Source: Bacilli bacterium
GTDB lineage: Bacteria > Bacillota_I > Bacilli_A > RFN20 > CAG-826
Assembly (NCBI GenBank): GCA_045114745.1
Contig: JBGULD010000005.1
Coordinates: forward strand, 1,467-65,466
Direction of reading: 5' to 3'
Length of the DNA stretch: 64,000 bases
Position 1 is the first letter of the stretch; each line of letters opens with the position of its first letter. Under the pieces are notes generated by a model. The model was given only the letters and a program-made list of their open reading frames with translations, made no database searches and was not told the DNA's origin. The translations under genes and the position numbers were made by a program. This document shows positions 4,117 through 42,054 of the stretch, piece after piece.

Positions 4117-4124
4117 AGATATTT

Positions 4125-4154: not shown

Positions 4155-4848
4155 GTTGCCCAATTCTATCAATAATTCTATGTAGTCTCTTATATAAGAG
4201 AAATGTTATTACAACCACAATTGCATCCTTCATCGCATTAAACGGTAATCCCACAAAGAAGAAGAATGTCCATCCTAATGAAGTTACATTTGGATTTGCG
4301 GCCCGACACATATTTAATATGACTTGTTTTGGCCACCCCATCATAAAGATATAGAAATCTAATATTAAGAACGAAGTAATAAGCGCTGATCCAATAACTT
4401 GGATAACGGTTGCTATAAGCAAACCGATTAAAGCACCCTTAATACTTCTGTTTTTCTTATAGATAATGGCGGCAGGTATTACAAACAAAGATGAATAGAT
4501 GAAATCCGCTAGTTCACCAACCATCATTGTGTTACTCATCGGTAATTTAACAATAGTCTTTATCAAGATGACAAAGAAACCACTTAATGGACCATAAGCA
4601 AACCCAGCGATTAAAGCAGGAACTTCATCGAAGTGGAATTCTAAAAATGCAGGGAAGAATGGAACGGAGAATTTAAGGCCTGGAACAAGGTATAAAATTA
4701 TCGACATTGCGGCAAATAAGCCGGTTCTTGCAATGAATTTGGTGGTAATTGGACTCTTTTTGCCAATTAATTTGGATAAACAAAACACACCTGCAATAAG
4801 CGCAAATGCGATAGCTATTACCAATCTCGTTAAGTCAAATTTATCCAT
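4144..4848 (-). CDS. ribU: ECF-transporter substrate-specific (S) component, riboflavin type
   Basis: The 234-aa protein is polytopic with about 6 TM segments. It lies directly downstream of an FMN riboswitch, which supports riboflavin specificity. Confidence 0.75.
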   Translation of the reverse strand: MDKFDLTRLVIAIAFALIAGVFCLSKLIGKKSPITTKFIARTGLFAAMSIILYLVPGLKFSVPFFPAFLEFHFDEVPALIAGFAYGPLSGFFVILIKTIVKLPMSNTMMVGELADFIYSSLFVIPAAIIYKKNRSIKGALIGLLIATVIQVIGSALITSFLILDFYIFMMGWPKQVILNMCRAANPNVTSLGWTFFFFVGLPFNAMKDAIVVVITFLLYKRLHRIIDRIGQQKN

Positions 4849-4855
4849 AAAAAAT

Positions 4856-4990
4856 AGGCCTAGTCCAAGGCCTTGAAAAAAACTTCTTTCATCCAGACTT
4901 TACTGTCGCCGCTTGAATCTCACAAGCTCATGCCTTTCGGCTCGTGGGGTATACCACCGGTCGCGTTATTCGCTGCCCTGAAGCAAGTTT
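4856..4990 (-). promoter_or_regulatory. FMN riboswitch (RFN element) with a hairpin expression platform
   Basis: The minus strand reads CAGGGCAGCGAATAACGCGACCGGTGGTATACCCCACGAGCC...GAGATTCAAGCGGCGACAGTAAAGTCTGGATGAAAGAAG. This matches conserved RFN core segments (AGGGC..GAA..CCGGTGGTA..CGAGCC.....GACAGTAAAGTCTGGATG.AAGAAG). A hairpin AGGCC-n8-GGCCT plus a U-run (4856-4873) sits immediately before the ribU ATG. Confidence 0.85.
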
Positions 4991-7578: not shown

Positions 7579-8975
7579 TAACCAACACTACCTTCCATAT
7601 CCATCTTGATAAGTTGATTAAGTTCGACAGCATATTCCATTGGGAGTTCTCTTGAGAATGGTTCAATAAATCCCATGATAATCATTTGTGTCGCTTCTTT
7701 TTCATTAATACCACGACTCATTAAATAGAATAATTGTTCTTCACTAATCTTACTGACGGTCGCTTCATGTTCAATAAATGAAGTATTATTTCTCACTTCA
7801 TTTGTGGGGATTGTATTACTACGTGATAATTCATCCAAAATCAAAGTATCGCATTCAACGTGACTACGACAATTCTTCGCGCCTTCTTTATGTCTAACAG
7901 TGCCGCGGTAATTTGCGACACCACCATTTTTCACAATTGACTTAGAAATAATCGTGGATGTTGTATCATCCGCTTCATGGATCATTCTCGCACCAGCATC
8001 TTGATATTGATTCTTACCAGCAACAGCAATTGATATACATGTACCCTTAGCACCTCTACCTTTTAAAATACAAGCTGGATATTTCATATTTGTTTGGCTA
8101 CCGATATTACCATCAATCCATTCCATTTGGGCATCTTCATAACAAACCGCTCTCTTGGTTACGAGATTTACGATATTTGTGGACCAGTTTTGTACAGTTG
8201 AATAACGGCATTTACCACCTTTTAAGACAATGATTTCAACTACTGCAGCATGTAAGCTTTCTTTACTATATGTTGGTGCGGTACAACCTTCCACGTAATG
8301 GACATCAGCACCTTCATCGACAATGATTAAAGTTCTTTCAAATTGACCGGATTTTTCGTTATTAATTCTGAAATAACTCTGCAAAGGTTTATCCAAATGC
8401 ACATTTTTCGGAACATAAATGAAACTTCCGCCAGACCAAACTGCCCCGTTTAAAGCGGAAAATTTATTGTCAGCGATTGGTACCACTGTACCGAAATATT
8501 TCTTAAATAAATCTGGGTATAATTTGAGAGCCATATCTGTGGAAAGGAAGATCACGCCTTTATCAGATATCTCTTTTAACATGTTGTGATAAACAACTTC
8601 AGATTCATATTGAGTGGAAACACCAGAAAGATATTTTTGTTCGGCTTCAGGAATACCTAATTTAGTAAATGTATTCTTAATAGTCTCCGGAACTTCATCC
8701 CAACTTTGAACTTCTTTTTTACTTGGTCTAGTGAAATATGTATAAGAATCAAAATCTAAATAGGAAAGATCAGGTCCGAATTTGGGAAGAGGCATCGCTT
8801 TAAACGCTCTTAAAGCTTTGAGTCTAAACTCAAGCATCCATTCTGGCTCGTTTTTTAAACGAGAAATCTCTTTAACGATATCTTCATTAAGTCCGACATC
8901 AGTCTTTAAAATAGAGACATCTTCGTCTTTAAAACCGTATTTATAATCTTCTTGGAATTTAATATCGTCGACCAT
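7578..8975 (-). CDS. sufB: Fe-S cluster assembly scaffold protein SufB
   Basis: The 465-aa ORF is highly SufB-like ([47 protein letters not shown]). It is the last gene of the sufCDSUB arrangement. Confidence 0.95.
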
Positions 8976-8976
8976 T

Positions 8977-9405
8977 TTATTTACCTTTTAAGATTTTGTC
9001 CGCAGCATTCCAACCAATAGTGGCGCATCTAATCCTTGCCGCTTGTTTAGATGTATTGATGAAAACGATAGCTTCTTCTAAAACATCTTCATCAAATGGT
9101 TTTTCATGAATCATGTTGTCGTATTGAAGGAGGATGTTTCTTGCTTCTTCAATATTCTTACCTTTTAATAAGTCACACATGATATCAGTACTAGAAGTAG
9201 AAATAGTACAAGCCACTCCATCAAAACATGCATCAATTACGATATTATTTTCTATTAGTAGAAAAATATCTAAATCATCAATGCAATTATCGGAATGCAT
9301 ATGGACTTTTTCAAATTTATCAGATGTTGGTTGATGCTTATTAAGAGGATTTGAATAATGATCCATAATAATTTGACGCATCATATCATTAGTTAAAGTA
9401 GGCAT
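8977..9405 (-). CDS. sufU: SufU/IscU-like sulfur-transfer (zinc-dependent) scaffold protein
   Basis: The 142-aa ORF carries [26 protein letters not shown] and [10 protein letters not shown], which are the SufU Cys/Asp ligand motifs. It lies between sufS and sufB. Confidence 0.85.
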
Positions 9406-10618
9406 CTAAAATATCTCCTCCATTGATTAAAGCATCGATCAAAGCATCGATATCTTCTTTACTTGTATATAAATATGTAGACATACGACATGTCGCTACA
9501 CATCCTAAATAATCATTTAAAATCTTCGCGCAGTGTTGACCACTTCTAATGGCGATACCTTTACTATTTAATAAGGTTGCTTCATCTTGGGCAAAGATAC
9601 CTTTTTTATTAAAGGTAATAATGCCGTTTTTCGCATTCTTATTATAAATAATAATGTCATCACATTTTTCTAATTTTGATATTGCATATTCGCATAATTC
9701 TTGATCGTGTTTATGAATATTATCCATACCGATAGATTCTAAGAATTCCACGGCGGCTTTCAATCCTAAAATGCCAGCGATATTTTGTGTTCCTGCTTCA
9801 AATCTCATCGGTGGTTCATATGGAACCATTTCAATATCTTTATTAAAGGAGACATTCATACCTCCTCCAACAAAATATGGCCACATTTTCTCTAATAGAG
9901 AATATTTACCCACTAAACAACCGATGCCGGTAGGACCGCACATCTTATGTCCAGAGAATGTTAAGAAGTCGGCATCTAAATCTTTGAAGTCGACTTTCAT
10001 ATGTGGAACGGATTGAGCGCCATCGACGACGAGGATCGCGCCATGAGAGTGGGCAATCTTTGCGAATTCTTTGATATCAACAATATTGCCTAAAACATTA
10101 CTGACTTGAGCAACGGAGATTACTCTAGCTTTATCTGTAATAATCTTTTTAAGATTGTCGACAGATAAACATCCATTTTCATCTAAAGGAATGAACTTAA
10201 TGACCGCACCAGTTAAATGAGAGACTTCATACCATGGTAATAAGTCGGAAGCGTGTTCCGCTTCGCTTAATAATATTTCATCCCCTTCCTTAAGGAACTG
10301 GAATCCATAAGATAAAGCAATAAGGTTTAATGACATCGTGTCACCAGAAGTAAAGACGACTTCATTAGGTTCGGCATTAATAAATCTAGCAATAGTTTCT
10401 CTTGTCTCTTGAACCTTCTTATCCATATTGAATAACAAGTCATAATCACCTCTATGGTGATTCGCAGTTTCTTCAGAATAATACTTAACTGTGGCATCAA
10501 TAACACATTGAGGCTTAAATGTCGTAGAAGCATTATCTAAATAGACAAGGGGTTTGCCTTGCATCTTTTTATCTTTTAACATGGGGAATAGTTCGCGAAT
10601 CTTATAAACGTCGTACAT
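9389..10618 (-). CDS. sufS: Cysteine desulfurase SufS (class V aminotransferase)
   Basis: SGHKMCGPTGIG contains the PLP lysine, and RSGQHCA is the active-site Cys loop. The start is taken at the ATG at 10618, directly after the sufD stop. The alternative upstream start at 10639 would overlap sufD. Confidence 0.9.
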   Translation of the reverse strand: MYDVYKIRELFPMLKDKKMQGKPLVYLDNASTTFKPQCVIDATVKYYSEETANHHRGDYDLLFNMDKKVQETRETIARFINAEPNEVVFTSGDTMSLNLIALSYGFQFLKEGDEILLSEAEHASDLLPWYEVSHLTGAVIKFIPLDENGCLSVDNLKKIITDKARVISVAQVSNVLGNIVDIKEFAKIAHSHGAILVVDGAQSVPHMKVDFKDLDADFLTFSGHKMCGPTGIGCLVGKYSLLEKMWPYFVGGGMNVSFNKDIEMVPYEPPMRFEAGTQNIAGILGLKAAVEFLESIGMDNIHKHDQELCEYAISKLEKCDDIIIYNKNAKNGIITFNKKGIFAQDEATLLNSKGIAIRSGQHCAKILNDYLGCVATCRMSTYLYTSKEDIDALIDALINGGDILDAYFN

Positions 10619-24329: not shown

Positions 24330-24899
24330 TCAGTATTTATAGTTTTCGACATATTCAATAAATTCTTTAATGTTGGATTCTGATAGCGGTAAACATTTCA
24401 ACATTGTTATAACTTCATTGTATTTTAAAGCAAGCAGTTTCAGATATTGCGCTGGTTTATGATTTGAAACATCAATTTTAAAACCATGCTTTTTAAAAAC
24501 TTCATCCATATTTGGATAAAAATATATAGGAACAATATATCCACCCTTTCCCCACCAATAGGATGAGAAGATTTCTCCATTTTTATATTTTTCAAAAAGT
24601 TCGTCTGGAGTATCATCTTTATCCATGATAGAAAAGATTTTATGATCCAAAATTCCTTTTTTCTTATCAATCTTTAAGCAATCCTTAAATTTTGTTTTAT
24701 AATCCGCTATCGTGGGAAAATGCGCCGACAAATAATCGTTAATAGTATTAATAATAATCGAATTTCTTCCATTCTTTTCTGAAAGAGGATTCAACGACTT
24801 GTGAGTCTTTACTTGAATCTGTTTAACAAGTATTTGTTCGCATTCGCCGTGGCAAATGGTTGAACATGGATGATAATGTATCTTTCTATTTCTTTTCAT
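24330..24899 (-). CDS. TOPRIM/RloB-like small protein, partner of the upstream ATPase
   Basis: The 189-aa product is counted from the ATG at 24899; the tracked start at 24905 is TTG. STICHGECEQILV resembles the xCEGxxTE TOPRIM glutamate motif of RloB/DUF4435 proteins, and FSIMDKDDTPDE resembles their DxD motif. A Cys/His cluster HYHPCSTICHGEC is also present. The gene overlaps the 3' end of the ATPase gene. Confidence 0.45.
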   Translation of the reverse strand: MKRNRKIHYHPCSTICHGECEQILVKQIQVKTHKSLNPLSEKNGRNSIIINTINDYLSAHFPTIADYKTKFKDCLKIDKKKGILDHKIFSIMDKDDTPDELFEKYKNGEIFSSYWWGKGGYIVPIYFYPNMDEVFKKHGFKIDVSNHKPAQYLKLLALKYNEVITMLKCLPLSESNIKEFIEYVENYKY

Positions 24900-26214
24900 G
24901 TTCAATAATATCCACGATATATTTCATGGAGAAAAAACCTGTTTGAGGTACTCCTCCATATAGTCCCTTTAAATATTGACCAACCACATCGGTTCCACTT
25001 TGTATTTGTCTACCAAAAACATCCAAAGAATAAGAAACAACCTGATCATATTTTTCGTCTCTATCTAAAAGATAAATATATTTCTTATTAATATTTTTTA
25101 ATAATAAGGTATTGTGTGTAGTAACGATCAATTGTCCTTTAACATCGTTTCCTAAAGAATCAAAAATAGCCTTCAAGAGAATATCATTGATTCCGGAATC
25201 AATTTCATCAATCACAACAATGTTGTCGTTGGCAACGATTTCATAAAAAGTGGGGAACAATTCTAATAGTTTTTTTGTTCCGGTAGAAGCTAGACTATAA
25301 GGAACTCGAGATTCATTTTCACCACCGCCTTCCACGAAGACAAGATTATATGTTCTGCTATTATCGGAAGACACTTCAATATCATAATCCACCCTATTAA
25401 TGTTCGAATAAATAGAAGTAAAAAACATCGACAAGGCTGTCTTTGTATTTTCTAATTGTTGTTTCATAGAATCAAAATAATTACCGTATACCAAAATAGG
25501 TAACATATTTGAATCATATTTGAACATTACTGGGAAATTGGTTGTCTCTTTAAAAACATGCAACTTCTCTAACTCAAACATGAATGCTCTAATGGTTTTG
25601 GAAATATTTCTATTGCCATAAGTTCCATCAATTTCTCCATATACAGAATTGATGCACGCCAAAAGAGTGTGCTTGCCAGAATACATTTTGAATCTTTCAG
25701 AGATTAAACTCTTAAGTTCTTCAGAGAAGAAATGGGCATCACTCAAATCAGCATTTCCGTATCTATCCATGCCAAAACCTAAATCGCCATTAATAAATAA
25801 CTTTTCTTCCACAATAGAAGAACTATCAAAGGCAAGGCGATAATCAAATTTGTCATTGCCAACAAAGCATTCGTATTTGGCCCTCATATTATCTTTAGAA
25901 CCAATCTTTTTATAAATGCTTATATATTCAGGTGCACTATATAAAAAGTCATCGTTAACATAAAGTCTATTGATTTGATTTTGCAAATTAGATATTCCAT
26001 TTCCAAGAAACTGATTCGAGAATTTAGTACTAGCAATGGAGTTCTTTACTTTATTAAGTAATCTAAAAGCATCCACTACTGTTGATTTTCCAATAGCGTT
26101 TTCACCATAGATAACCGCAACATTCTTTGCACTTTTCTCGGCTTTGTTTTGATGCAAATCAAATTCAAAATGTTTGAAGGATTTAAAGTTGTCTAAAACA
26201 ATTTTACTAAACAT
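24886..26214 (-). CDS. ABC-type (AAA_21/AAA_15-like) ATPase of defence-island type
   Basis: Walker A is YGENAIGKST. ASTGTKKLLEL is signature-like, Walker B is VVIDEIDSGIND, and VTTHNTLLL is H-loop-like. There is no transmembrane or transport partner. An AAAGAGGA RBS is present. Confidence 0.75.
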   Translation of the reverse strand: MFSKIVLDNFKSFKHFEFDLHQNKAEKSAKNVAVIYGENAIGKSTVVDAFRLLNKVKNSIASTKFSNQFLGNGISNLQNQINRLYVNDDFLYSAPEYISIYKKIGSKDNMRAKYECFVGNDKFDYRLAFDSSSIVEEKLFINGDLGFGMDRYGNADLSDAHFFSEELKSLISERFKMYSGKHTLLACINSVYGEIDGTYGNRNISKTIRAFMFELEKLHVFKETTNFPVMFKYDSNMLPILVYGNYFDSMKQQLENTKTALSMFFTSIYSNINRVDYDIEVSSDNSRTYNLVFVEGGGENESRVPYSLASTGTKKLLELFPTFYEIVANDNIVVIDEIDSGINDILLKAIFDSLGNDVKGQLIVTTHNTLLLKNINKKYIYLLDRDEKYDQVVSYSLDVFGRQIQSGTDVVGQYLKGLYGGVPQTGFFSMKYIVDIIEHEKK

Positions 26215-26240
26215 GGCATGTTCCTCTTTTATGCATATTT

Positions 26241-26268
26241 AGTATATATTATTTCAGACAATTTACAA
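26241..26268 (-). promoter_or_regulatory. Candidate sigma-A promoter of the ATPase/TOPRIM-like pair
   Basis: The minus strand reads TTGTAA, a 16-nt spacer and TATACT, about 25 nt upstream of the ATG at 26214. Confidence 0.35.
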
Positions 26269-26551
26269 CAATATTTGCTGTTTTTTACTAAGTTTTTTAG
26301 CTTTTAATGTGTATATCGGTTAAACAAACAATATCATATTAAATGGCCGCATCATCAAAATTCTTGCAAAAGAAAGAAATAAAAAATGACTTTACATAAT
26401 TTATGTAAGTCACACATTATCTATTCTTGAACTTTGTTTTTTGATTATATTGATAAAATTGTTAACACTTTTTAGAATTAAAGTGTATCATAATAGTAGG
26501 CCCGAGGATATCTCGCGCGGTAAAAGAGGGAGCGTCTCCCCTTTTATTTTT

Positions 26552-27433
26552 TTATCTTTCCCATTTAGCAGGGAATTTGCGTAATCCCACCATCTTTCCG
26601 CTTCTATTACAAACAATCTTATTTTTGACTATTTCAAAATCTTTACCCTCTGTCCCAAATCGCATATAACGATAAATAGGATATGAACATAAATCAGCCA
26701 TTTCTATGCCAGGATATGCAAAAGCTCCGTCGTCAGATACTTTATGATTGAAAAACGCATCCACAAAATAGCGCTTTAGTACATTTTTCTTTGTGCTTTT
26801 ACAACCAGTTATATTTATTATCTTATAGATGTGTTTGTATAGTGATTTGTCTTCATTTTTGCCTCTAGATTCAAAAACAAGAGCTATTTTTTTATTTCGT
26901 TTAACATTCTTATATAAGCACTCAAGAATAATATCGAAAGCAACTTCGTAAGGATCGTATTTATAGTTTTGTTTGACATAAGAATACAAATCAAACGTCA
27001 CAGAAATAATTTTGCTTTTTATCATGCTTATAACGCTCGAAAGAGAATCTAAAAATTTATTGTATTTTTTCGCGGTTCCAAAATTAAATGGGCCCACTCT
27101 TTTGGCGATGTCTCTGTTGTGAAGAACAACTGGCGATTCCACCTTTTTAAAATACTGGTTTTTCAATTTTGCTATTAATTGCTTTGAAAATTCATACTCA
27201 CTCTTTGAAAATAAACAACAAGTTAAAGTGAAATATCTTCTGTTTTCATCTACTGGTTTGTTTGTAACAACGGATTTAAACATTTGTAAAATTGCGCTTG
27301 CGGAACCATTTTCATCAAAACAAGCAACATAGTCATATTTATTGTCAAAAGATGTAAATTCTTTTAGTGGTGTTTTGGATACAATTTCTTCCCAGTTTTT
27401 CATATCTAAAACTTTATCACAATAAAAGTACAC
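26552..27433 (-). CDS. DUF3800-like protein
   Basis: VACFDENGS resembles the N-terminal xxDESG motif. VVLHNRDI and GIEMADLCSYPIY resemble the central H..D and C-terminal ADL motifs of DUF3800. The start is uncertain: GTG at 27433 or ATG at 27403. The hairpin GGGAG-cgt-CTCCC at 26527-26541 lies just downstream. Confidence 0.55.
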   Translation of the reverse strand: MYFYCDKVLDMKNWEEIVSKTPLKEFTSFDNKYDYVACFDENGSASAILQMFKSVVTNKPVDENRRYFTLTCCLFSKSEYEFSKQLIAKLKNQYFKKVESPVVLHNRDIAKRVGPFNFGTAKKYNKFLDSLSSVISMIKSKIISVTFDLYSYVKQNYKYDPYEVAFDIILECLYKNVKRNKKIALVFESRGKNEDKSLYKHIYKIINITGCKSTKKNVLKRYFVDAFFNHKVSDDGAFAYPGIEMADLCSYPIYRYMRFGTEGKDFEIVKNKIVCNRSGKMVGLRKFPAKWER

Positions 27434-27472
27434 TATGACATAAAATAATAAAAATGCGTTGCAACAATCCTA

Positions 27473-27880
27473 CTAAGACAGCTTATTTGCAGCATCGAAA
27501 ATATCGTCAATAATACCATTTGGTAATTCGGTGAAGAAATAAAGCGTTCCTGCTTGGTTAGTAGGCATACTTCCGTTATGTGGATTTTTATCTAAAAAAC
27601 TTTTTTGTCTTTTATCATCATCTGATATTGAGTAATGTGAATAAAGTCTGATAGAACGCTTAAGTATATAAGGCTCAATTTTATAATTATCCAGATAGTT
27701 TCTTACTAAAAAGGCCGCTTTATCCATATCACATTGATAAAATCTACCAGCAACTTTCCCGTCTGGTGTTTTAAATTTATCAGCATTTAAGGCAACATCG
27801 ATAAAGGACTTACACAAAATATAAAACTCTTCATTTGAGAAATCCGATGGAACTTGTTTTAAAAAGTCTTCTTTTGTCAT
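27473..27880 (-). CDS. Hypothetical 135-aa protein (no recognisable family), upstream partner of the DUF3800-like gene
   Basis: The start is assigned to the ATG at 27880 (MTKEDFLKQV...), which has AAGGAG 7 nt upstream. The tracked start at 27931 is TTG and lies inside the repeat-module edge. A 39-nt gap separates it from the next gene. Confidence 0.55.
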   Translation of the reverse strand: MTKEDFLKQVPSDFSNEEFYILCKSFIDVALNADKFKTPDGKVAGRFYQCDMDKAAFLVRNYLDNYKIEPYILKRSIRLYSHYSISDDDKRQKSFLDKNPHNGSMPTNQAGTLYFFTELPNGIIDDIFDAANKLS

Positions 27881-27929
27881 GCACATTCTCCTTAAAAACA
27901 TTATACATTTTTGCTTTTGTCTTCTAAAC

Positions 27930-28120
27930 AACTTGCACTTCTTTCTTTTTTGATGGATTTATAGACACACAAGGAACAAGCACCACTATGAATAATAAAG
28001 ACAAGGTTATCTTTGATAAGAAACTCCCATACGAATATAACATCTGTCTTTATATCTTAGAAGAATTATGCGATAAGGGAATTATCAATGTTTTTGAGAT
28101 GACTGAAGCCATAATTCTTC
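27930..28120. repeat. Copy A of a roughly 190-bp duplicated divergent promoter/small-ORF module
   Basis: It aligns without indels to 31487..31677 and is roughly nine-tenths identical by eye. The alignment includes a perfect run TACGAATATAACATCTGTCTTTATATCTTAGAAGAATTATGCGATAAGGGAATTATC. Confidence 0.9.
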
Positions 28121-28152
28121 TAAGAAAGAAATACAAAAAATGCCTGTTATAA
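27988..28152 (+). CDS. Small conserved ORF (54 aa) inside repeat copy A
   Basis: Manual translation gives MNNKDKVIFDKKLPYEYNICLYILEELCDKGIINVFEMTEAIILLRKKYKKCLL. It is a paralogue of the N-terminal 42 aa of ORF 31545..31781. The nucleotide differences between copies keep the frame open. AAGGAA lies upstream. Confidence 0.4.
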   Translation: MNNKDKVIFDKKLPYEYNICLYILEELCDKGIINVFEMTEAIILLRKKYKKCLL

Positions 28153-28392
28153 GTATCTATGGTAAAAAAAGACAATAATTCCAGCGACTAAAAAGTAAGG
28201 AAAAGAACTAATAAAAGAAGCTGGTCCGAAACACAACCTAAAATCCACACTCACCTTTGGCGAGTGTTAGAACCTTCCATGTCTAATGCGAGCCATATGA
28301 TGTTTTTTGGTCTTACATATTATTTCATTTTTAACAAATATAATAATCAATTAAATGGATATTAGAGATCGTTTTTGTGGTACAAATAAAAA

Positions 28393-29511
28393 TTATTTGA
28401 TTTCAATAAATGAAATCTGCTTTTTTATTTTTAAGTTGGTGACAATTGTGTTTCTTTTTAGTTCAGGATATCTATATCTCTCATAAGCATTCAACAGTTT
28501 AGATACATTCATCTCAAGTTTTTGTAATTCTCTATTTTGTGTTTTTTTGTCGCCAAATCTTGAATAACAAATATATAAATTTATCTGCTTCGCCGTTTCT
28601 TTCCATTGGTGGCCATAGTTTTGCTTATAAAAGAAATCGCACATATCAAATAGTTCAAAGAAATATGGGTAATCTTGTTCCCCTAGTGAGTGCCCATAAA
28701 TAATTATTGCCTGAACGCCTTTCCTATCAAAATCATAACTGAAATCAACATCCAGTTTTCGCCATTCTTTGCTTAATTCAAAAATATCATTATCCTTTAT
28801 GCTTTGCCCTGTTGAATCATATCCTACGACAATTTTGGTATTGAGAGTTCCGTGAACATTCGCTTCACAACAGTATTTAGAAGAATCAATGGTGGTATAG
28901 TTAAAATCTATAATCTGTAATAAATAGTCTTTATTAACTGGACAGGCAGCGATAATTTTATCAACCATTTGTTCTTGAAGCTTTATATAATCGTTCTGCC
29001 TTCCAAGCCTTCTTTTAAGATATTTAATTAAGTCACTTTCAAGTTCATCCAAATCTTCAGATAAGATTTTCTTAATTGTTGAATAATCAAACTTTTGTCC
29101 GTCTTTTACCCTTCTATATAAAAGACCATCAATTCTTAATTGAATAGTATCTTTGATATTATAGTTGGAGCTTGGTAAATGGCTTTTATATATCTTTGAA
29201 ATCATTTCCTCTTCAGTTGCTATTTTCTTAACAAAACCTTCAACATCCATCCAGTTTGGATTTTTATAATCCACCGCTCTAAAAAATCCTGCATAATCGC
29301 GTTCTCTATAAAAACGCAATTTAAGTAATAAGTAAAGCAAATTATCACCATTGTATTGTTTTGACTTATCAAGCACACATTTTTCAAAGAAATTAGAAAA
29401 AGATGATTTTAACCCTAAGTGCATATCAAAACCATTCCCAAGCACTAAGACGTTGTGTGTTTTTGCAAACAAATCGATTACTTTATTTATTTTATTTTGA
29501 TCCATTTTCAT
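28393..29511 (-). CDS. AbiH-like abortive-infection family protein
   Basis: The N-terminus NVLVLGNGFDMHLGLKSSFSNFF matches the characteristic AbiH signature (GNGFD..hGl.tsY.dF). IIIYGHSLGEQDYPYF matches the C-terminal GHSL..D motif. Size is 372 aa. Confidence 0.7.
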   Translation of the reverse strand: MKMDQNKINKVIDLFAKTHNVLVLGNGFDMHLGLKSSFSNFFEKCVLDKSKQYNGDNLLYLLLKLRFYRERDYAGFFRAVDYKNPNWMDVEGFVKKIATEEEMISKIYKSHLPSSNYNIKDTIQLRIDGLLYRRVKDGQKFDYSTIKKILSEDLDELESDLIKYLKRRLGRQNDYIKLQEQMVDKIIAACPVNKDYLLQIIDFNYTTIDSSKYCCEANVHGTLNTKIVVGYDSTGQSIKDNDIFELSKEWRKLDVDFSYDFDRKGVQAIIIYGHSLGEQDYPYFFELFDMCDFFYKQNYGHQWKETAKQINLYICYSRFGDKKTQNRELQKLEMNVSKLLNAYERYRYPELKRNTIVTNLKIKKQISFIEIK

Positions 29512-29567
29512 GTTCTTTTGTTTTGTTTAAGTGATTGTGCTCCCAATAACAAAAAGCTTTGAATCAA

Positions 29568-29720
29568 TTATCTATCATCTTTTGGTTTTGGATTTGGGTT
29601 TGAGGGATATTTATCTGGATCGATGTTTTTGTGGCTATCGTGAATGGTAATGTTTTTATTATCAGAATTTGGGACACTATAGTTCTCTCTTATCGGTTTT
29701 TTTACTTTTGTATCAGGCAT
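29568..29720 (-). CDS. Possible 50-aa hydrophilic ORF translationally coupled to the upstream membrane-protein gene
   Basis: Manual translation gives MPDTKVKKPIRENYSVPNSDNKNITIHDSHKNIDPDKYPSNPNPKPKDDR. Its ATG at 29720 overlaps the upstream TGA (ATGCCTGA). The sequence is low complexity and has no homology support. Confidence 0.25.
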   Translation of the reverse strand: MPDTKVKKPIRENYSVPNSDNKNITIHDSHKNIDPDKYPSNPNPKPKDDR

Positions 29721-30309
29721 AATTAATTCCCTTCCTTTTCAAATAATATGCAGATTCTAAACTGCGATAATATTTTTGAACGACACTATTACGTGGATGC
29801 TTATTTAAAAACAATTTCATACAATATTTAGATGATAAATAAAACATATTCTTAAAAACTTTAATATAGTTATATAGTTTTTCTTTATCTTCTATTGTTA
29901 CCGAATCATTCAAATGTTTTTTTCTAAAATTCATATAATTGTTTTCTATTTTAAGAAATCTATATGCAAAACACTTTTTCTTTTCTTCTACATCATCACA
30001 CTTAATACAACCAAATTCTTCTAGATATTTATATCTATTGGCCACACCATAATAATATAGTCTATTAAAGCCAGTTAATAATTCTTCTTCAGTAGCAATT
30101 ATTCCTTTCATATCACGAAATGACCCACTATCAAGGATTTCATAGGCATCATTAATAAAAGACAATATCCCTTTTGTGTTATCAAAAAAGAAATCAATAT
30201 TGGCTTTATTATGTTGCCTAATTGCAAAATATAGCGAAATAAAAGCAATAACCATTGATATACAAGCAATAGATATTGAGATAATTGAAGTAACTACATC
30301 TGTTTGCAT
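29713..30309 (-). CDS. Hypothetical single-pass membrane protein (N-terminal TM helix + about 160-aa helical cytoplasmic domain)
   Basis: The TM helix is VVTSIISISIACISMVIAFISLYFAI, followed by a Lys/Tyr-rich soluble domain. I recognise no family. TATAAT lies 6 nt upstream of the ATG and there is no SD, so the transcript may be leaderless. Confidence 0.5.
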   Translation of the reverse strand: MQTDVVTSIISISIACISMVIAFISLYFAIRQHNKANIDFFFDNTKGILSFINDAYEILDSGSFRDMKGIIATEEELLTGFNRLYYYGVANRYKYLEEFGCIKCDDVEEKKKCFAYRFLKIENNYMNFRKKHLNDSVTIEDKEKLYNYIKVFKNMFYLSSKYCMKLFLNKHPRNSVVQKYYRSLESAYYLKRKGINYA

Positions 30310-30450
30310 ATAGTTATTATAAATCAGTAGAGCAAAGATGTCTTTAAAGTACTATTAAATCCATCATTAAATCATTTTAAAATTCATTGGTCCAAGCTAA
30401 TATCGCCGTCTTTTATCGACTATGCGATGTCAGAGCACCATTGTCGCTCT

Positions 30451-31458
30451 CTATTTTGATTCTTTCAATTCTTCTTTAAAATCTTTCACGGCTTTTTCTA
30501 GTTGCTTCGCATCACTTGAAAAAACATATTTATACGAGCAAGCCACACTATTTCTATTAGAAGCTTTTAATCCGGCATTAGAATAAACATTAAATTGTGT
30601 GCATTCACAATCTGTTCTTTCATAAAACTTTCTTTTGTCTGACATGATAAGCAAGAGTCTTTTAGATAGCGGAACCTCGACCACCATCCCGTATGTTGCA
30701 AGGGATGGAGGAAACATTGGCATTATTTCTTCTGTTGGACACAAGTTTAATAATTTATCAGTTAAGAACAGGGTTCCTCTATCAAAGAAAACAAATTGCC
30801 AAGTATAATTGAAGAAAATGTTCGTCATTTTATCAATAAGTTCTTTATTAATAATGGCGGAAATATGAAATAATCTTTTTTGTTCTTTTGTATAAGAGAT
30901 GGTTAAATTTTCCGGCTTAATATGGATGCCACCAAACTGTGCCATAATAGCCGTTGTTTGTTTAACCATTGAAACTCTCATTTCATCATAAAAATCTCTA
31001 ACATATTTTGTTTTGATGTGATGCAGTGCCAAAAGATGGGCAAACTTGGCCTTATTAACATCATCTAATAGAATTCTTTTTCCTTCTTTTGCATTTTTGA
31101 TTGTTTGTGATATTAATTCTCTGAATTCTGGTTCATATTGATTACTATACAAGTCATCAACAGCATATTCTAAATCTTCTTTTTCTTCCTTTGACATTTC
31201 AGATATCGGTTTAAATCCATCTTTTATAGAGGCTTCATCAATCTTTCTCTTTTCTTGATCATCTGAGCGATTATAAATATCTACTATTCCGAGATTGAAA
31301 AAATAGTTTTCTTCGCCAACATCTTGAATATCGCTCCAATAAAACTTATCAGTGTCTTTATTATAAACATACAATTTTTCATTCTTGGTGCAAAAATTCT
31401 TAAAATAGTGTTGAGATATATAGTGTTGCTTTTTGGCTCTGGTTTTTTTCCTTGACAT
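30451..31458 (-). CDS. DUF4238-like protein
   Basis: The N-terminus KKQHYISQHYFKNF matches the DUF4238 signature (HyvPqfyLrnF). Size is 335 aa. Confidence 0.6.
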   Translation of the reverse strand: MSRKKTRAKKQHYISQHYFKNFCTKNEKLYVYNKDTDKFYWSDIQDVGEENYFFNLGIVDIYNRSDDQEKRKIDEASIKDGFKPISEMSKEEKEDLEYAVDDLYSNQYEPEFRELISQTIKNAKEGKRILLDDVNKAKFAHLLALHHIKTKYVRDFYDEMRVSMVKQTTAIMAQFGGIHIKPENLTISYTKEQKRLFHISAIINKELIDKMTNIFFNYTWQFVFFDRGTLFLTDKLLNLCPTEEIMPMFPPSLATYGMVVEVPLSKRLLLIMSDKRKFYERTDCECTQFNVYSNAGLKASNRNSVACSYKYVFSSDAKQLEKAVKDFKEELKESK

Positions 31459-31677: not shown

Positions 31678-31781
31678 GGCGAGTGTTTACCAAACAAAAA
31701 GACTCACATTTCAACATAATTGAAACACGAGCCATGTATTGTTTTAAAAGAAAAGAAAAGCGGAATCCCGCTATTTCTTGA
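31545..31781 (+). CDS. Small ORF (78 aa) inside repeat copy B, paralogue of 27988..28152
   Basis: MHNKGKVIFDKKLLYEYNICLYILEELCDKGIIDAFEMTEAL is conserved with copy A, and the C-terminus then diverges. Its 3' end runs through the terminator and stop codon of the convergent epimerase gene, so the true length is doubtful. Confidence 0.35.
   Translation: MHNKGKVIFDKKLLYEYNICLYILEELCDKGIIDAFEMTEALIPRRVFTKQKDSHFNIIETRAMYCFKRKEKRNPAIS
31741..31772 (-). terminator. Rho-independent terminator of the ugd-HEPN-epimerase transcription unit
   Basis: The minus strand reads GCGGGATTCCGC followed by TTTTCTTTTCTTTT, overlapping the TAG stop at 31771-31773. Confidence 0.7.
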
Positions 31782-32797
31782 TATAGAAACTATAATACCA
31801 TTCCGCAAAACGTCTTAATCCATCTCTAAGACTTGTGGATGGTTTATAACCAAAATCTCTTTCTAAATCACTTGTATCTGCATATGTAACAGGAACATCG
31901 CCTTTTTGCATTGGCGCCAATTTCTTGTGAGATTCGAAATCATAATCTTTAGGAAGTACATCCGCTTTAACGAGTTCTTCAGATAATATCTGTACGAAAT
32001 CTAATAGGTTTTCTGGATTATTATTACCAATGTTATAAATCTTATACGGAGGAATTGGTAAACCATCTTCTCCATCATGTTTCACTGGAGGTTTATCCAT
32101 CACTCTTATAACGCCTTCAACAATATCATCTACATAAGTGAAATCTCTTTTACAATTACCATAATTAAAGATTTCAATAGTTTCACCTTTAATTAACTTA
32201 TTAGTAAAACTAAAGTACGCCATATCTGGTCTTCCCATAGGACCATATACAGTAAAGAATCTTAATCCAGTTGTTGGGATGTTATATAACTTAGAATAAG
32301 CATGCGCTAGTAATTCATTAGACTTTTTGGTCGCAGCATATAAACTAACTGGATTATCTACTTTATCGTCTGTAGAAAATGGAACTTTAACATTGCCACC
32401 ATAAACGGATGATGAAGATGCATACACTAAGTGTTTAACTGGATGATATCTACATGCTTCTAATATGTTATAGAATCCAATAATATTTGATTGAATATAA
32501 ACATCAGGATGATCAATTGAATATCTAACACCCGCTTGAGCCGCTAAGTTGACAACAATATCAAAATAATATTCATTAAATAACTTATCTAAAAATGCTT
32601 TATCGGATATATCACCTTTAACAAATGTAAAGTTCTTAAAAGAAGATAACATTTTGAGTCTTTCATTTTTTTAAAGACACATCATAATAATCATTAAGGT
32701 TATCTAAACCAATAATGTCATAATCTGTGATTTCTAATAATTTTTTACATAGAAACGCACCTATAAATCCTGCAGCGCCTGTAATGAATATTTTCAT
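31771..32797 (-). pseudogene. UDP-glucuronate 4-epimerase-like NAD-dependent epimerase, interrupted by a frameshift in an A7 tract
   Basis: The ATG at 32797 gives [44 protein letters not shown] and then TGA. Removing one A from the A7 run (T7 on the plus strand, 32666-32672) restores ...[26 protein letters not shown]..., continuous with tracked ORF 31771..32652. That ORF carries YASSSSVYG and YAATK, the SDR catalytic motifs. Confidence 0.8.
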
Positions 32798-34149
32798 AAC
32801 GTATTCGAGGTTTGGTTTTTATCGTCTCCAGACAACTCTTCTGTTTTGAAATCACCAATGTGATTATTGACTATTTCATTGTAATAAATTGTATCTCGAA
32901 ATTGCAAAAATAATGGCCAGTTAATCAATTCGTTTGGTGTTTTGTCGGAGGAATATGATTGTTCAATTAATATGGCCGCATCTTTATAATTATCTAATAA
33001 AATTAGTTTAGCAATCTTGAACTGTATTTCAGCTGCACTAACATCAAATGTCGCAATTTCTTTATCAAAAGAATCATTTTGGCTTGAATATTTTAAAGAC
33101 AACAACAGATTAACCTTGGCAATCATTTTTGTAGCAAAATCAAGCTTTTTAGATGAAGAAAGAACCTTATAAACAAATGAAGTCAAAATATATTCTTTGT
33201 TGGCCAACTTTTCAAAATAATAATCCAGCAATTCATCAACATTGTTTTCAGAGGGTTTTTCTTTTTCCAACAGTTTAAAAACAATAAAAAACATTATTTT
33301 TTGAATATTAATAATATTTTCCGCAAAATACTCTTTGTCACACTTTAATGAAGTACCAATTTTGCACAATGATGATGGAATCGACTTCAAATACATTTGA
33401 TTCACAATTCCTTCGTTGTGAACAAATATGTTTCTTCTGTAGTATAATTCACAAAAGCGATCGAATAAATCTTTAATCTCTCCAAGGCATATTTTTTCTT
33501 TTTCGAAAATCTTTTTCGTGGTCTCAATCGAATCAAACATATCTGCTTCAACAATCTCATCAATTTGTTCATTTATAATTTCATCAACGTCCTTTCTAAT
33601 CAAGGATTGTAATGTTATTGTTTTTGAGCAGAAATATATGGATGGGTTATTGTGTATTAAAGCTGTATAGACGCACGAAAGAAATGACTCGTATGTGGAT
33701 ATCAAACTAGACAATATTGATTTTTGTAAACAAGAATACATATATCCATATTTTTTCATTATTCTTCTAGCAGTGGATGGCGAATATAGTTTTCGATCTT
33801 TAATTTCTTGATTAAAAACAAATTCAAATCCCATCTCTTTTTCGCTAAATGATAATTCTGAAAACAAATCAAAAAGCTTGTATTTTGAAGAAACGGGAGC
33901 ATTTTTAATCTCTTCCGCCCTTTCTTTTCTTTCTTTTTCGGTTTTGCATTTGTAAACAGAATTAAATAATGAAAGAATTTTGAAGGACGTTTCGTTGTTT
34001 TGTTTTTCTTTCGCAAAATTCTCTTTAATTGCTGCCAAATTAATTAAAAAATAGTCAAAGAGTTGTCCAATGTGCTCGGAAAAAGAAATGCAACAACTAA
34101 CTATTGCGTTTTTGAATTGTTCTTTGAAATCTTTATTGTCGTCTTTCAT
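32794..34149 (-). CDS. HEPN-motif protein (predicted RNase-type defence/toxin domain) with a large uncharacterised N-terminal region
   Basis: [14 protein letters not shown] contains the Rx4H HEPN catalytic motif (RNIFVH) in a helical context. The product is 451 aa from the ATG at 34149; the tracked start at 34155 is TTG. Its stop TGA overlaps the epimerase ATG (ATGA), and its start lies 7 nt after the ugd stop. Confidence 0.55.
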
Positions 34150-34155
34150 AAACAA

Positions 34156-35364
34156 TTAATCTCTCTTAAATAAATCCCTTGTATAGATTTTATCTTTAAC
34201 ATCATCTAAAGATGAATCATATCTATTAGCGATAATAACTTTGGATAATTTCTTAAATTCATCAAAGTCTTTAATAACTCTACATTTAAAGAATTCCTCT
34301 TCTTTTAATGTTGGTTCATAAATAACTATATCAACGCCTTTAGCTTGTAATCTCTTCATGACACCTTGAATAGAAGATGCTCTAAAGTTATCGGAACCAG
34401 ATTTCATAGTTAATCTATATATGCCAACGGTCACATCATCATGACCATCATTCTTATATCCCGCTTTTCTTAATACTTCATCACAAATGAATTGTTTTCT
34501 AGTTCTATTAGATTCCACTATCGCGGATATAAGATTCTCTGGTACATCTTCAAAGTTAGCTTTCAATTCTTTAGTATCTTTAGGCAAACAATATCCACCA
34601 TAACCAAAGGATGGATTATTATAGAAGTCTCCTATTCTAGGATCACCACATACACCTTTAATAATATCTAATGTATCTAGACCTTTGGTTTGGGCGAACG
34701 TATCTAATTCATTAAAATACGCTACTCTAAGCGCTAAATATGTATTAGCAAATAACTTAACGGCTTCCGCTTCAGTACATCCAAGAATATGTGTTTCTAT
34801 ATTCTCTTTAATGGCGCCTTCTTGAAGAAGCTTTGCAAATTCTTTCGCTTTAGATAAATAAGGTTCTTTTTTCTCAGGAACACCCACGACTATTCTTGAC
34901 GGATAAAGATTATCATATAGTGCTTTTCCCTCTCTTAAGAATTCAGGAGAAAAAAGAATCTTATCATATTGATATTTTTCTCTTACATATTTAGTAAATC
35001 CGACACCTACAGTGGATTTAACAATAATCCAAGCATTAGGATTAACTTTCTTAACTTGTTTAATAACTGATTCTACAGATGATGTATCAAACTTGTTGGT
35101 CACACTATCATAGTTTGTAGGGGTAGCAATGATAACTAATTCAGATTGCTTATAAGCACCATCACCATCTAATGTTGCTATTAAATCTAATTGTTTGTTT
35201 GCTAAATATTCTTCAATCTCTTTATCAATGATTGGAGATTTTTTGTTGTTAATTAAATTAACCTTAGATGTAACTACATCTACGGCATAAACTTTATTAT
35301 TTTGGGCTAAGATAATTGCATTACTTAGTCCAACATATCCGAGTCCAACAACAGAAATGAACAT
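34156..35364 (-). CDS. ugd: UDP-glucose 6-dehydrogenase
   Basis: [16 protein letters not shown] provides the Rossmann motif and [10 protein letters not shown] contains the catalytic Cys. Size is 402 aa. Confidence 0.9.
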
Positions 35365-38648: not shown

Positions 38649-39734
38649 TTAAATACTGTGGTTTTCAAAAAAACCGCTCATTGATATTGTATCAAAATTG
38701 GAAAGAGGCAATTTGATTGGTCTACCAATCAATTGACTCTTATAAATCGCAAGAACAATTTCTAATGCATTTTTCCCAGCATGACCATCTATATATGGTG
38801 AATGATTATTTTTAATTGAGTCAATCATATCTCGATAAACCATTGTATGCCCATTTCCATAGACGTTAGATGTTTCTTCTTTGACTTTTTTGTTCTCTTC
38901 ATCCTCTTTAGATTGTTGTTTAAACTCCCAAATATCTATGTTGTTGCAAGAAGTGCCGCCTAATTTGACCGTTCCATTTTCACCGAAAATATACAAAGTT
39001 TCTTCAAGATTTTTGGGATATACATTTGTTGTTCCCTCTATTGTTCCTATAGATCCATTCTTAAATTTAATAACTGCCATCCCAATGTCTTCGCACTCCA
39101 AATAGTCATGAAAGCGATTCCTAATGGCTCCATAAACTTCTTCTACTTCATCACCCATCATCCATCTTAAAAGGTCTATTCCATGAATACATTGGTTCAT
39201 CAAAGCACCACCGTCACTTTTCCATTTTCCTCGCCAACTAGCTTGATCATAGTAGGACTTACCTCTGTTCCATCTAATATGGATCGATCCATGGGAAAGC
39301 TTGCCAAATTTATTTTCTTCAATTGCCTGTCTAACTTTTTGAACCGCAATGTTGAATCTATTTTGGTGACATACGCATAATTTAACATTATGCTCTTCCG
39401 CCATTTTTATCATTTTATCTGCAGCTTCAATAGACATGGCCATTGGTTTTTCAACAATTACATGTATATTATTTTGCAAAAAGAATAAGGCGATTTCTGC
39501 ATGGGATTCACTGTCAGTTGCTATAGCAACAAAATCTAAATTATGGTTTTCATACAACATTTTTTTATAGTCAGTATATTTTTTTATCGATAGTTTTAAA
39601 TCAGCTCTTGATAAGAGTTCATCTGTTTTTTTAATATCAAGATCGCATAGCGCGATTAAATTTAAATTGTTATTTATTATTGCTCGTAAATGGTTTATTG
39701 CAATTCTGCCACATCCAATAATAGCTACATTCAT
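38649..39734 (-). CDS. Gfo/Idh/MocA-family NAD-dependent sugar-nucleotide oxidoreductase (WbpB-like)
   Basis: MNVAIIGCGRIAINH provides the Rossmann motif and EKPMA is present. It is overlap-coupled to a DegT aminotransferase, as in WbpB/WbpE pairs. Confidence 0.75.
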   Translation of the reverse strand: MNVAIIGCGRIAINHLRAIINNNLNLIALCDLDIKKTDELLSRADLKLSIKKYTDYKKMLYENHNLDFVAIATDSESHAEIALFFLQNNIHVIVEKPMAMSIEAADKMIKMAEEHNVKLCVCHQNRFNIAVQKVRQAIEENKFGKLSHGSIHIRWNRGKSYYDQASWRGKWKSDGGALMNQCIHGIDLLRWMMGDEVEEVYGAIRNRFHDYLECEDIGMAVIKFKNGSIGTIEGTTNVYPKNLEETLYIFGENGTVKLGGTSCNNIDIWEFKQQSKEDEENKKVKEETSNVYGNGHTMVYRDMIDSIKNNHSPYIDGHAGKNALEIVLAIYKSQLIGRPIKLPLSNFDTISMSGFFENHSI

Positions 39735-40918
39735 TTCACTACCTCCATTGCTTCAAATAGTTTTTGAACAATATATTCTTTTTCTTCTTCGAACAGCTCG
39801 GGAAAAACCGGAATTGCAAATGTAGTTTTTGCAAGTTCTTCAGTTACCGGTAAATCACCTGGTTTGTATTTCAAATACGAAAATGCGCCCTGTAAATGAA
39901 GTGGAATTGGGTAATACACTCCACTTCCAACACCATTATCGTTTAGATATTTAATGATCGCATCGGCTTTTTTGTGTTTGAGAGCAAAAATATAATACGA
40001 ATGGAAACAATTTTCACCGACAAATGGTGTTATGTATTCACTATTTTTAAGAGCGTTGTAATAATAATTTGCATTATTTCTTCTTCTCTCAATAAATGAA
40101 TCTATATATCTGATTTTTTCTTTAAGAATTGCTGCTTGAATGGCATCCAATCTGGAATTATAACCAATTAAATAGTTGTAGTATTTTGTTTCGCCAATTG
40201 CAATATTTTTAGGTAGTTCCATTCCCTTTGAAGAAAGCTGGTGATTAAAAGTTAAGAGGCCGTCTCTTCCAGATCCATGGACTCTAAATGCACGACATGC
40301 TTTTGCTAAGGTTTCATCATCCGTTAAAATCATGCCCCCATCACCATCGCATCCCAAATTCTTTGTAGGAAAGAAAGAAAAACACGATATATCCCCGAGA
40401 ATATTCTTTCTTTCGCCACAATATTCTGTTCCAGTTGCTTGCGCGCAATCGGCAATAAGATACAAATTATGTTTTTTACATATTTTTTTAATTGAGTCCA
40501 TCTCGCAGCAATTACCATAGAAATGGACAATCAATACAGCCTTTGTTCTTGAAGTAATTGCGTTTTCAATGAGTCTGTGGTCAATGCAATATGTTTTTTT
40601 ATCAACGTCGACAAAAACAGGAGTTGCACCAACCGATGCTATACTTTCAGCCGTTGCAAAGAAAGTCCACGCAACCGTAATTACTTCATCACCACCGCCT
40701 ATATTAAGCGCCCTCAATGCGATAATCAACGCATCAGTCCCGTTTCCACACGAAATTCCGAACTTTGCCCCTTCGTATTTCGCAAATTCTAATTCAAAGT
40801 CTTCTACTTCTTTTCCGCCAATATAGTTGCCACTTCTCAAAACGCGCATCGCTGCTTGTTCATAATCATCTTTATGTTCAAGATGTTGCCTTTCAATGTT
40901 CATCAATTTAATGTTCAT
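39731..40918 (-). CDS. DegT/DnrJ/EryC1/StrS-family sugar aminotransferase (WbpE-like)
   Basis: The 395-aa ORF has FFPTKNLG (PLP lysine region) and a CGNGTDAL motif. Confidence 0.85.
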   Translation of the reverse strand: MNIKLMNIERQHLEHKDDYEQAAMRVLRSGNYIGGKEVEDFELEFAKYEGAKFGISCGNGTDALIIALRALNIGGGDEVITVAWTFFATAESIASVGATPVFVDVDKKTYCIDHRLIENAITSRTKAVLIVHFYGNCCEMDSIKKICKKHNLYLIADCAQATGTEYCGERKNILGDISCFSFFPTKNLGCDGDGGMILTDDETLAKACRAFRVHGSGRDGLLTFNHQLSSKGMELPKNIAIGETKYYNYLIGYNSRLDAIQAAILKEKIRYIDSFIERRRNNANYYYNALKNSEYITPFVGENCFHSYYIFALKHKKADAIIKYLNDNGVGSGVYYPIPLHLQGAFSYLKYKPGDLPVTEELAKTTFAIPVFPELFEEEKEYIVQKLFEAMEVVK

Positions 40919-42054
40919 ACTCTTTTTCTCTCTTTTATAAAACTATTATAGTCATCATTAATTCTTGAAAACACCTTAAACATATCGCACGTTTCTTCTG
41001 CAAAACGTCTGATTTCATTAATGACATCCTCCTTGTTTCTTTTTAAATAAACCGAATCATAAAAAGTAATTAGTTCATCAATATTAAATGATTCTTTCAG
41101 TTCATAGAAAAAGAATTTTGGGTTGTCATAAAAAACATCAAGCATTGTATCCGAGATTACAGGAATTCCTTTTGCTAGGTATTCTTTGCTTTTTAAGGTG
41201 CTACTACAGGTGATTCCGAGCTCTTTATTTGATAGCGAGGAGATGCCTAATTCGCACTCATTAAAAACGGCATCTAATTCTTCACCATACAATCTCCCAT
41301 AAAAAATAATATTATTAATACTTAATTCTTTGACAGTTTTAATATAATCTTGAAGCCTTGGGCCACTTCCTACTATATGAAAACAAACATCACGGGTTTT
41401 GTCATTTGACTCACTATAATAACGAATGGTGGCATCAATAATTTTGTCAACACCATGATAATCTTGAAGGGAAGCAACAAGCAACACATTAATACGATTC
41501 GAATAAGTCGGTTTTCTTGGAACAATACTCTTAACATTTGTGCCATTTGTTATTATTAAAGTATCAATACCAAATACTTTTTTCTCCATACAATCGATGA
41601 CAATCTTATAAACATAATTATGGAGATATTTATTGAAAAAGTATTTGATGTTGTTTTTTAAATTATTTTTTGGAACAAAAAAAGTTGGAATTTCCAAATA
41701 TAAACAATTCGATTTTTTAGATAAAAAGGTCAGTGCTTTAAAACCAAAAAAATCAAGAGCGCCATGCCTTATGTAAATAAAATCATACGACAATTTATTT
41801 TTTTTAATGAAACGAGCACACGCGACAAGTGTTCGATTATAATAACGAAAACCGCTTGAAATAAATTTGCAAAGATAATAACTTTTGGAATCATGCTGCA
41901 TAAAAACATCATGCCCATCAGTATAAATATAATCCACATCATTGCCACAAAAACGAAGACACTCAATGTGAGAATGTATTTTTTTCATAACACCATCGCT
42001 TTTTAACATTATTTCGGTGCTATTATAAACAGAAATATAAAGAACTTTTGACAT
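40915..42054 (-). CDS. Glycosyltransferase (GT-B fold, GT4-like)
   Basis: The 379-aa ORF has a C-terminal half with HIVGSGP, a STLKSKEYLAKGIPVIS-type nucleotide-sugar-binding region, and operon context. Confidence 0.6.
   Translation of the reverse strand: MSKVLYISVYNSTEIMLKSDGVMKKIHSHIECLRFCGNDVDYIYTDGHDVFMQHDSKSYYLCKFISSGFRYYNRTLVACARFIKKNKLSYDFIYIRHGALDFFGFKALTFLSKKSNCLYLEIPTFFVPKNNLKNNIKYFFNKYLHNYVYKIVIDCMEKKVFGIDTLIITNGTNVKSIVPRKPTYSNRINVLLVASLQDYHGVDKIIDATIRYYSESNDKTRDVCFHIVGSGPRLQDYIKTVKELSINNIIFYGRLYGEELDAVFNECELGISSLSNKELGITCSSTLKSKEYLAKGIPVISDTMLDVFYDNPKFFFYELKESFNIDELITFYDSVYLKRNKEDVINEIRRFAEETCDMFKVFSRINDDYNSFIKERKRV

Follow-up and report, generated by a model that had tools for sequence, protein, structure and literature searches.

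In the 64,000-nucleotide stretch of a Bacilli bacterium genome analyzed here (the window), two adjacent genes on the minus strand encode an ATPase of the ATP-binding cassette (ABC) type and a small protein of 189 residues, which is predicted to derive from the Toprim fold. The pair is a real, conserved two-gene cassette, and the comparisons below relate it to the AbiL and RloAB systems. The initial annotation of the locus, made from the letters of the DNA, described a 14-nt overlap between the ATPase gene and the small open reading frame (ORF), and this overlap is recovered when the latter is read from its ATG start. An alternative in-frame TTG at 24905 would give a protein of 191 residues; the alignment with the homologues begins at the ATG start. 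The overlap suggests translational coupling, and the partner would be translated together with the ATPase. No helicase or reverse transcriptase gene adjoins the pair, and ATPase and partner are separate ORFs.

The 442-residue ATPase has all four motifs attributed to it in the initial annotation, namely GENAIGKST (Walker A, residues 37–45), ASTGTKK (signature-like, 309–315), VVIDEIDSG (Walker B, 333–341), and TTHN (H-loop, 365–368). Across nine partner ATPases with 24–61% identity, no variation is seen at the core positions of these motifs (G37, E38, N39, G42, K43, S310, G312, D336, E337, D339, G341, and H367), and the motifs for ATP binding and hydrolysis are intact. Also, a C-terminal Y-L-x-G-x-Y-G-G-x-P motif (residues 414–423), which lies outside the classical ABC motifs, is invariant in the partner ATPases. 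The proposed placement among the AAA_15/AAA_21 defense ATPases agrees with Pfam (AAA_21, E = 8.7e-17; AAA_15, E = 2.7e-9) and with PADLOC, where the best model is AbiLi (PDLC02335, 1.7e-41, 140 bits). The AriA model reaches 4.8e-18 and 64 bits, being 76 bits below AbiLi, and the mad3, PtuA, and GajA models are also far behind. Moreover, AbiLi is the top PADLOC model for four partner ATPases from distant loci of the family (1e-38 to 1e-45), and its lead over AriA is at least 60 bits in these four and in the window ATPase. Domain scans reveal no additional effector domain in the ATPase.

For the small protein, 13 close homologues are found (52–81% identity), and in an exhaustive phmmer search (E ≤ 1e-3) the family amounts to at least 140 clusters at the 50% identity level, whose representatives are almost all about 190 residues long. 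The only name given by the sources for members of this family is "hypothetical protein", and no published description of it was found in a limited literature search. Among 123 full-length relatives, no match to a Pfam family of Toprim type is observed, nor anything meaningful in Pfam, NCBIfam, or PHROGs. The family profile retrieves zero PDB sequences at E ≤ 10 and, from a set of 5.8 billion proteins, nothing beyond the family itself and no named protein. Six-frame searches of the source genome gave no match to PF13707 or PDLC02337. A related-locus search with a narrow family alignment returned two loci, and tblastn with the window protein found nothing in phage or plasmid collections, where a more consensus-like member of the family did match. 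On these searches, the small protein belongs to a widespread family named by no domain library.

The conservation pattern of this family was obtained from an alignment of 123 members with a mean column identity of 24%. The family consensus reads I-x-H-G-K-S-E ... F-K-I-F-x-I-M-D-x-D-D ... Y-I-x-P-I-Y-N-x-P-N-L-E ... T-N, which in the window protein corresponds to H17-G-x-x-E21, M-D93-x-D95, and P-N-M-D132. Position 17 is His in 120/121 members, the sole exception (P0137) having the canonical VCEGSCE, i.e. Glu; G18 (121/121), E21 (122/122), and D93 (123/123) are invariant, and position 95 is Asp in 117 and Glu in 6 of the 123. Also, P124 is kept in 121/123, an acidic residue (E/D) at position 132 in 122/123, and N176 in 119/123. 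At such a low mean identity, the conservation of H17, G18, E21, D93, and D95 is far beyond chance.

In a canonical Toprim domain, the catalytic Glu is expected at the end of strand β1 (EG motif) and the DxD motif at the end of β3. The second feature is present, D93 and D95 being at the C-terminal end of the modeled strand 87–93; at the first, the family has His. The predicted active site would thus depart from the canonical one by a near-invariant His in place of the Toprim Glu, with E21, D93/D95, and E/D132 retained. The initial annotation had noted a resemblance of ICHGECEQ and IMDKDD to the Toprim Glu and DxD. Both motifs exist and the DxD stands, whereas the Toprim-Glu position is His17; of the two Glu residues of ICHGECEQ, E21 would be the second acidic residue (the "TE" of RloB), and E19 is not conserved in the family. 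The acidic residues anticipated in homologues are found, position 95 being D/E in 123/123. An N-terminal Cys/His cluster had also been suggested as a metal site. Its cysteines occur mainly in the close subfamily of the window protein (C12 in 32, C16 in 57, and C20 in 26 of the 123), H8 and H10 are variable, and C12 and C16 sit within β1 in the model. Because the positions vary and lie in β1, the cluster is rejected as a feature of the family.

Remote homology was addressed with RloB/AbiLii proteins from genomes of the same phylum, where PF13707 is found in 26/301 and the PADLOC AbiLii model in 40/401, with largely shared loci. The profile–profile comparison covered RloB/AbiLii; members of DUF4276 were sought in the 301 genomes and none was found. 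When 30 RloB/AbiLii proteins, in a larger L-INS-i alignment, are compared with the 123-member family, hhalign gives a probability of 89.3% in local mode (E = 2.1e-6, 166 columns) and 92.8% in global mode (E = 5.6e-8), and controls with one reversed and five column-shuffled profiles give at most 0.6%. An earlier comparison with a cruder RloB alignment reached only 36%. The alignment is collinear: HGxSE faces EGxxTE, which places H17 opposite the Toprim Glu and E21 opposite the invariant TE; MDxD falls on fDxD, and the C-terminal TN falls on NPxT. Moreover, PNL(E/D)132 would be the counterpart of the RloB CFE motif because the order of secondary structure is the same (β4, N-x-P-x-x-E, helix). 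Of the sampled RloB proteins, 24 have Glu at the first acidic position, 3 have Asp, and 2 have Asn, with His in none of 29; their length is mostly about 200–250 residues (range 175–288), versus about 190 in the family. Weak matches to the PADLOC AbiLii model are also observed in 16/123 members (best 2.3e-4), which makes it by far the most frequent model; the others are mad4 (three members) and HEC-01B.

The AlphaFold2 models point in the same direction. They are confident (pLDDT 92.4 for the window protein and 96.7 for a second model) and show a β-α-β-α core with H17 at the end of β1 and D93/D95 at the end of β3. In a Foldseek search of BFVD, the first match is the family member of Oenococcus phage phi9805, followed by a viral model named "RloB-like protein" (E = 1.4e-3, probability 0.99, TM 0.48). 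Among the weak matches in the PDB, the Toprim regions of type IIA topoisomerases (II/IV) and gyrase and of retron Eco2 recur; these being non-significant, no Toprim fold is claimed from the PDB. Taken as sequence and model comparisons, the data identify the family as a remote homologue of RloB/AbiLii, which is in line with the small, divergent RloB/Toprim-like partner first proposed.

Co-occurrence of the two genes in other genomes had been set beforehand as a condition for that proposal, and an AbiLi-like ATPase homologue (24–61% identity) is located directly upstream of the small gene in every intact locus examined. Between the two genes there is anything from an overlap of 26 nt to a gap of 19 nt, and both proteins diverge in parallel across loci, which suggests co-evolution. 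The distribution is patchy: the module is present in 5/399 genomes of the phylum and absent from a genome of the same genus. Copies were recovered from metagenome-assembled genomes (MAGs) of gut and rumen Bacilli, from Enterococcus faecalis plasmids that are conjugative, and from phi9805, a temperate phage of Oenococcus (Table 1). The module is mobile, as its presence on plasmids, in a prophage, and in defense islands indicates. In phi9805, the C-terminal part of the small gene is frameshifted, leaving an ORF of 167 residues and a tblastn match in two pieces. Some copies are decayed: in one genome (G358:C2, loci L046/L048), in-frame stops split the small gene while the ATPase is still open, and in another (G255:C13, L047), a 79-residue fragment remains without ATPase.

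The window copy is chromosomal, with no recombinase nearby. Directly 5′ of the pair runs a series of defense-type genes (26552–31458, minus strand), which the pair opens; an aminotransferase operon flanks the whole on one side and capsule genes on the other. Also, in locus L004 (1–1646), the homologous module lies, as in the window, beside UDP-glucose dehydrogenase and epimerase genes, which suggests that the capsule locus is bordered by a hotspot of integration common to both. Locus L005 has, next to the module homologue, a second and different pair (3237–4870, plus strand), in which an AAA_21 ATPase gene (377 residues) overlaps a 167-residue ORF without Pfam match; this pair is upstream of the AbiEii gene, with two unannotated ORFs between.

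A terminator-like hairpin after the DUF3800 gene and a weak promoter-like site give the window pair the appearance of a separate transcription unit. The hairpin probably terminates the upstream DUF3800 gene, four terminator-like sites being found versus 0.7 expected. The promoter-like matches of the intergenic region are not above the shuffled expectation, and the site assigned in Table 1 is tentative.

Table 1. Features of the two-gene module in the window and at related loci (window positions unless another locus or accession is named)
Locus	Feature	Position	Strand	Evidence or context
Window	ABC-type (AAA_15/AAA_21) ATPase, 442 residues, AbiLi-like, predicted sensor/regulator subunit	24886–26214	minus	PADLOC, Pfam, motif conservation
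Window	Small RloB/AbiLii-like protein, probably Toprim-derived, 189 residues, 22 kDa, predicted effector	24330–24899	minus	hhalign, AlphaFold2, Foldseek BFVD
Window	Overlap of ATPase stop and partner start, 14 nt	24886–24899	minus	Read from sequence
Window	Shine-Dalgarno-like AGAGGA, strong, 7 nt 5′ of ATPase ATG	26222–26227	minus	Read from sequence
Window	Promoter-like TTGTAA-16-TATACT in 337-nt intergenic region 5′ of ATPase	26241–26268	minus	Consensus scan only
Window	GC-rich hairpin GGGAGACGCTCCC then T-rich tail TCTTTT, directly 3′ of DUF3800 gene	26524–26545	minus	Terminator scan and sequence
Window	DUF3800 gene	26552–27433	minus	
Window	152-residue ORF without assigned family	27473–27931	minus	
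Window	AbiH gene	28393–29511	minus	
Window	198-residue ORF without assigned family	29713–30309	minus	
Window	DUF4238 gene	30451–31458	minus	
Window	Epimerase gene	31771–32652	minus	Capsule side
Window	453-residue ORF between epimerase and ugd	32794–34155	minus	No Pfam match
Window	ugd (UDP-glucose dehydrogenase) gene	34156–35364	minus	
Rumen Bacilli MAG, L001	CBASS pair (SAVED effector and CD-NTase)	7330–9491		Immediately downstream of module
Metagenome contig	Module			Adjoins KAP NTPase and capsule genes
L005 contig	AbiEii gene			On same contig as module
Contig	Module			Adjoins integrase and HTH_17
NCBI genome	Module			Adjoins AbiH
Contig	Module			Adjoins SLFN_AlbA_2
Erysipelotrichaceae MAG	Module			Further locus
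Genome G150	Module			Further locus
E. faecalis conjugative plasmids, NZ_CP090559.1 (L080; also LR962704.1)	Module	39117–41075 (L080 4001–5959)		Tyrosine recombinase and Fic gene alongside
Oenococcus phage phi9805 (L081)	gp41-gp40	2139–4072		Between transcriptional activator and DNA-packaging genes

Such contexts could also be those of an addiction or stabilization module of mobile elements, similar to type II toxin-antitoxin pairs; the Toprim-like protein would then be the toxin, counteracted by the ATPase as its antitoxin. This explanation would fit the copies carried by E. faecalis conjugative plasmids and by a temperate phage and those found beside integrases, and there are precedents, as NetFlax classes pairs of AAA and TOPRIM_OLD proteins as toxin-antitoxin-like (PMC10440598) and PARIS formally behaves as a toxin-antitoxin pair (PMC13064643). 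Nonetheless, the neighbors are repeatedly defense genes (AbiH, CBASS, AbiEii, KAP NTPase, SLFN_AlbA_2), and the window pair is on a chromosome and away from any recombinase. We consider addiction as the main role quite unlikely, and both roles are in any case compatible with each other.

The cassette probably serves phage defense, a role also supported by the defense-island neighbors of the window pair (DUF3800, AbiH, and DUF4238). The explanation that we favor, and regard as reasonably likely by analogy with related systems, is a self-contained and horizontally mobile module of AbiL/RloAB type, in which the ATPase would be the sensor and restrainer and the small Toprim-derived protein a nuclease effector, with defense by abortive infection. 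By analogy with PARIS, OLD, and AbiL, an ATPase oligomer would hold the small effector inactive and sense a phage cue. Then, the activated effector would abort the infection by metal-dependent endonuclease activity directed at tRNA/RNA or DNA, with His17 being a metal ligand or perhaps the general base.

Several observations weigh against this explanation. The window protein has no match in Pfam, NCBIfam, PHROGs, or PADLOC (none at E ≤ 0.1 in PADLOC or Pfam), and the models for RloB (PF13707), DUF4435 (PF14491), and DUF4276 and those of PADLOC for AbiLii and AriB all miss it; the scan for RloB and DUF4435 that the initial annotation had proposed was thus negative. In the alignment with RloB, hhalign confidence is low around the SNPCFE motif. 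Also, a Foldseek search of the PDB with the two models gave nothing at E ≤ 1e-3 (best E = 0.017), and no OLD, AriB, or GajA structure is among its matches. The grouping of H17, E21, D93, D95, and D132 in one pocket is putative, and the support for the family comes from sequences and predicted structures. Moreover, nuclease activity should not be assumed, since the canonical catalytic Glu is absent.

This last point leads to the main competing explanation, in which the small protein would be a catalytically dead Toprim relic acting only as an adaptor or regulator of the ATPase (e.g. a specificity or trigger-binding subunit), the activity being elsewhere or due to the ATPase alone. Consistent with this, the residue replaced by His in 120/121 members is the same Glu whose mutation inactivates AriB (PMC12409363), and no significant structural match to an active Toprim nuclease is found in the PDB. 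However, drift would be expected in a relic, whereas almost no variation is seen at H17, G18, E21, D93, D95, E/D132, and N176 in a family whose mean identity is 24%. Moreover, His is competent both as metal ligand and as general base, and the ATPase lacks a further effector domain. A dead relic is therefore considered unlikely, and an active effector is preferred.

A bolder version of the active effector is that the HGxSE family forms a branch of Toprim nucleases with a mechanism of its own and a separate, so far undetected AbiL-like system, widespread in gut Firmicutes, plasmids, and prophages. In that case, His might act as general base in a metal-independent or single-metal cleavage of RNA leaving 2′,3′-cyclic phosphate ends, or alternatively might make a transition metal necessary. 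We regard this version as possible but doubtful. In any case, the near-universal change from Glu to His at a residue whose mutation kills AriB constitutes a natural experiment on Toprim active sites. Tractable test systems are offered by the E. faecalis plasmid copies, in a culturable host, and by the copy of the Oenococcus prophage.

The position of the partner below the AbiLii/RloB thresholds, together with its His motif, implies that two-gene rules of PADLOC style probably miss the pair. Two-component rules such as those of PADLOC and DefenseFinder see here an orphan AbiLi-like ATPase, and PGAP names the E. faecalis plasmid pair "AAA family ATPase" and "hypothetical protein". A family of at least 140 clusters is thus probably absent from censuses of defense systems.

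AbiL, RloAB, MADS3-4, and PARIS have been grouped as defense systems that pair an ABC ATPase with a Toprim protein (PMC11464382, PMC12409363, PMC13064643, PMC10440598). Among them, only PARIS offers a mechanistic template supported by structures: a hexamer of AriA sequesters AriB and frees it when the trigger is sensed, and the effector AriB, a two-metal tRNase, loses its activity through the E26A mutation of the Toprim Glu (PMC11464382, PMC12409363). The window pair shares with PARIS the design of a sensor ATPase of ABC type plus a separate Toprim effector, and the initial annotation had suggested a divergent or minimal PARIS variant. For a true PARIS system (AriA/AriB), triggered by Ocr-type anti-restriction proteins, the common two-gene design and the match of the ATPase to the AriA model could be invoked. 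However, the AbiLi model is well ahead of AriA for this ATPase, as for the other partner ATPases tested, and profile homology favors RloB/AbiLii for the small protein. Also, AriB is a DUF4435 Toprim protein of about 35 kDa with Glu at position 26, whereas the partner is RloB-like, of 22 kDa, and has His there, and neither PF14491 nor the PADLOC AriB model matches it or any of its 123 relatives. Membership in PARIS, which we judge highly improbable, was rejected on the lack of DUF4435/AriB signal in the partner and the preference of the ATPase for AbiLi; what stands of the suggestion is a minimal version of the design common to AbiL, RloAB, and PARIS, nearer to AbiL.

The OLD family (P2 Old, GajA) and MADS3-4 share with the pair the AAA_15/21 ATPase clade and an effector of Toprim type, but in OLD and GajA the two parts are fused in one protein and the Toprim has the canonical EGxxE. 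With RloA/RloB from Campylobacter type I restriction-modification loci, the pair has in common an AAA_21-type ATPase and an RloB-type partner, collinear over about 166 columns. Nevertheless, the window pair is not in a type I restriction-modification locus, no hsd gene being present in the stretch examined (21.2–35.4 kb of the window), PF13707 misses the partner, and the ATPases found upstream of canonical RloB genes are related only distantly (E = 1e-12 to 1e-5). Finally, the best counterpart is AbiL from the Lactococcus lactis plasmid pND861 (AbiLi and AbiLii, PDLC02335/PDLC02337), where the ATPase also comes first and the small Toprim-related protein second in adjacent co-oriented genes, the match to AbiLi is strong, the partner is remotely homologous, and the contexts are mobile or defense islands. 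The differences are in the partner, which stays below every AbiLii/RloB hidden Markov model threshold and has HGxSE instead of EGxxTE and PNL(E/D) instead of SNPCFE. With a partner that is sub-threshold for the AbiLii/RloB and AriB profiles and lacks the canonical Glu, the pair would be neither AbiL proper nor PARIS. The architecture of ABC ATPase and Toprim protein was already known and no new principle is involved; what these comparisons add is an uncatalogued, predicted His-variant Toprim partner within an AbiL/RloAB-like module.

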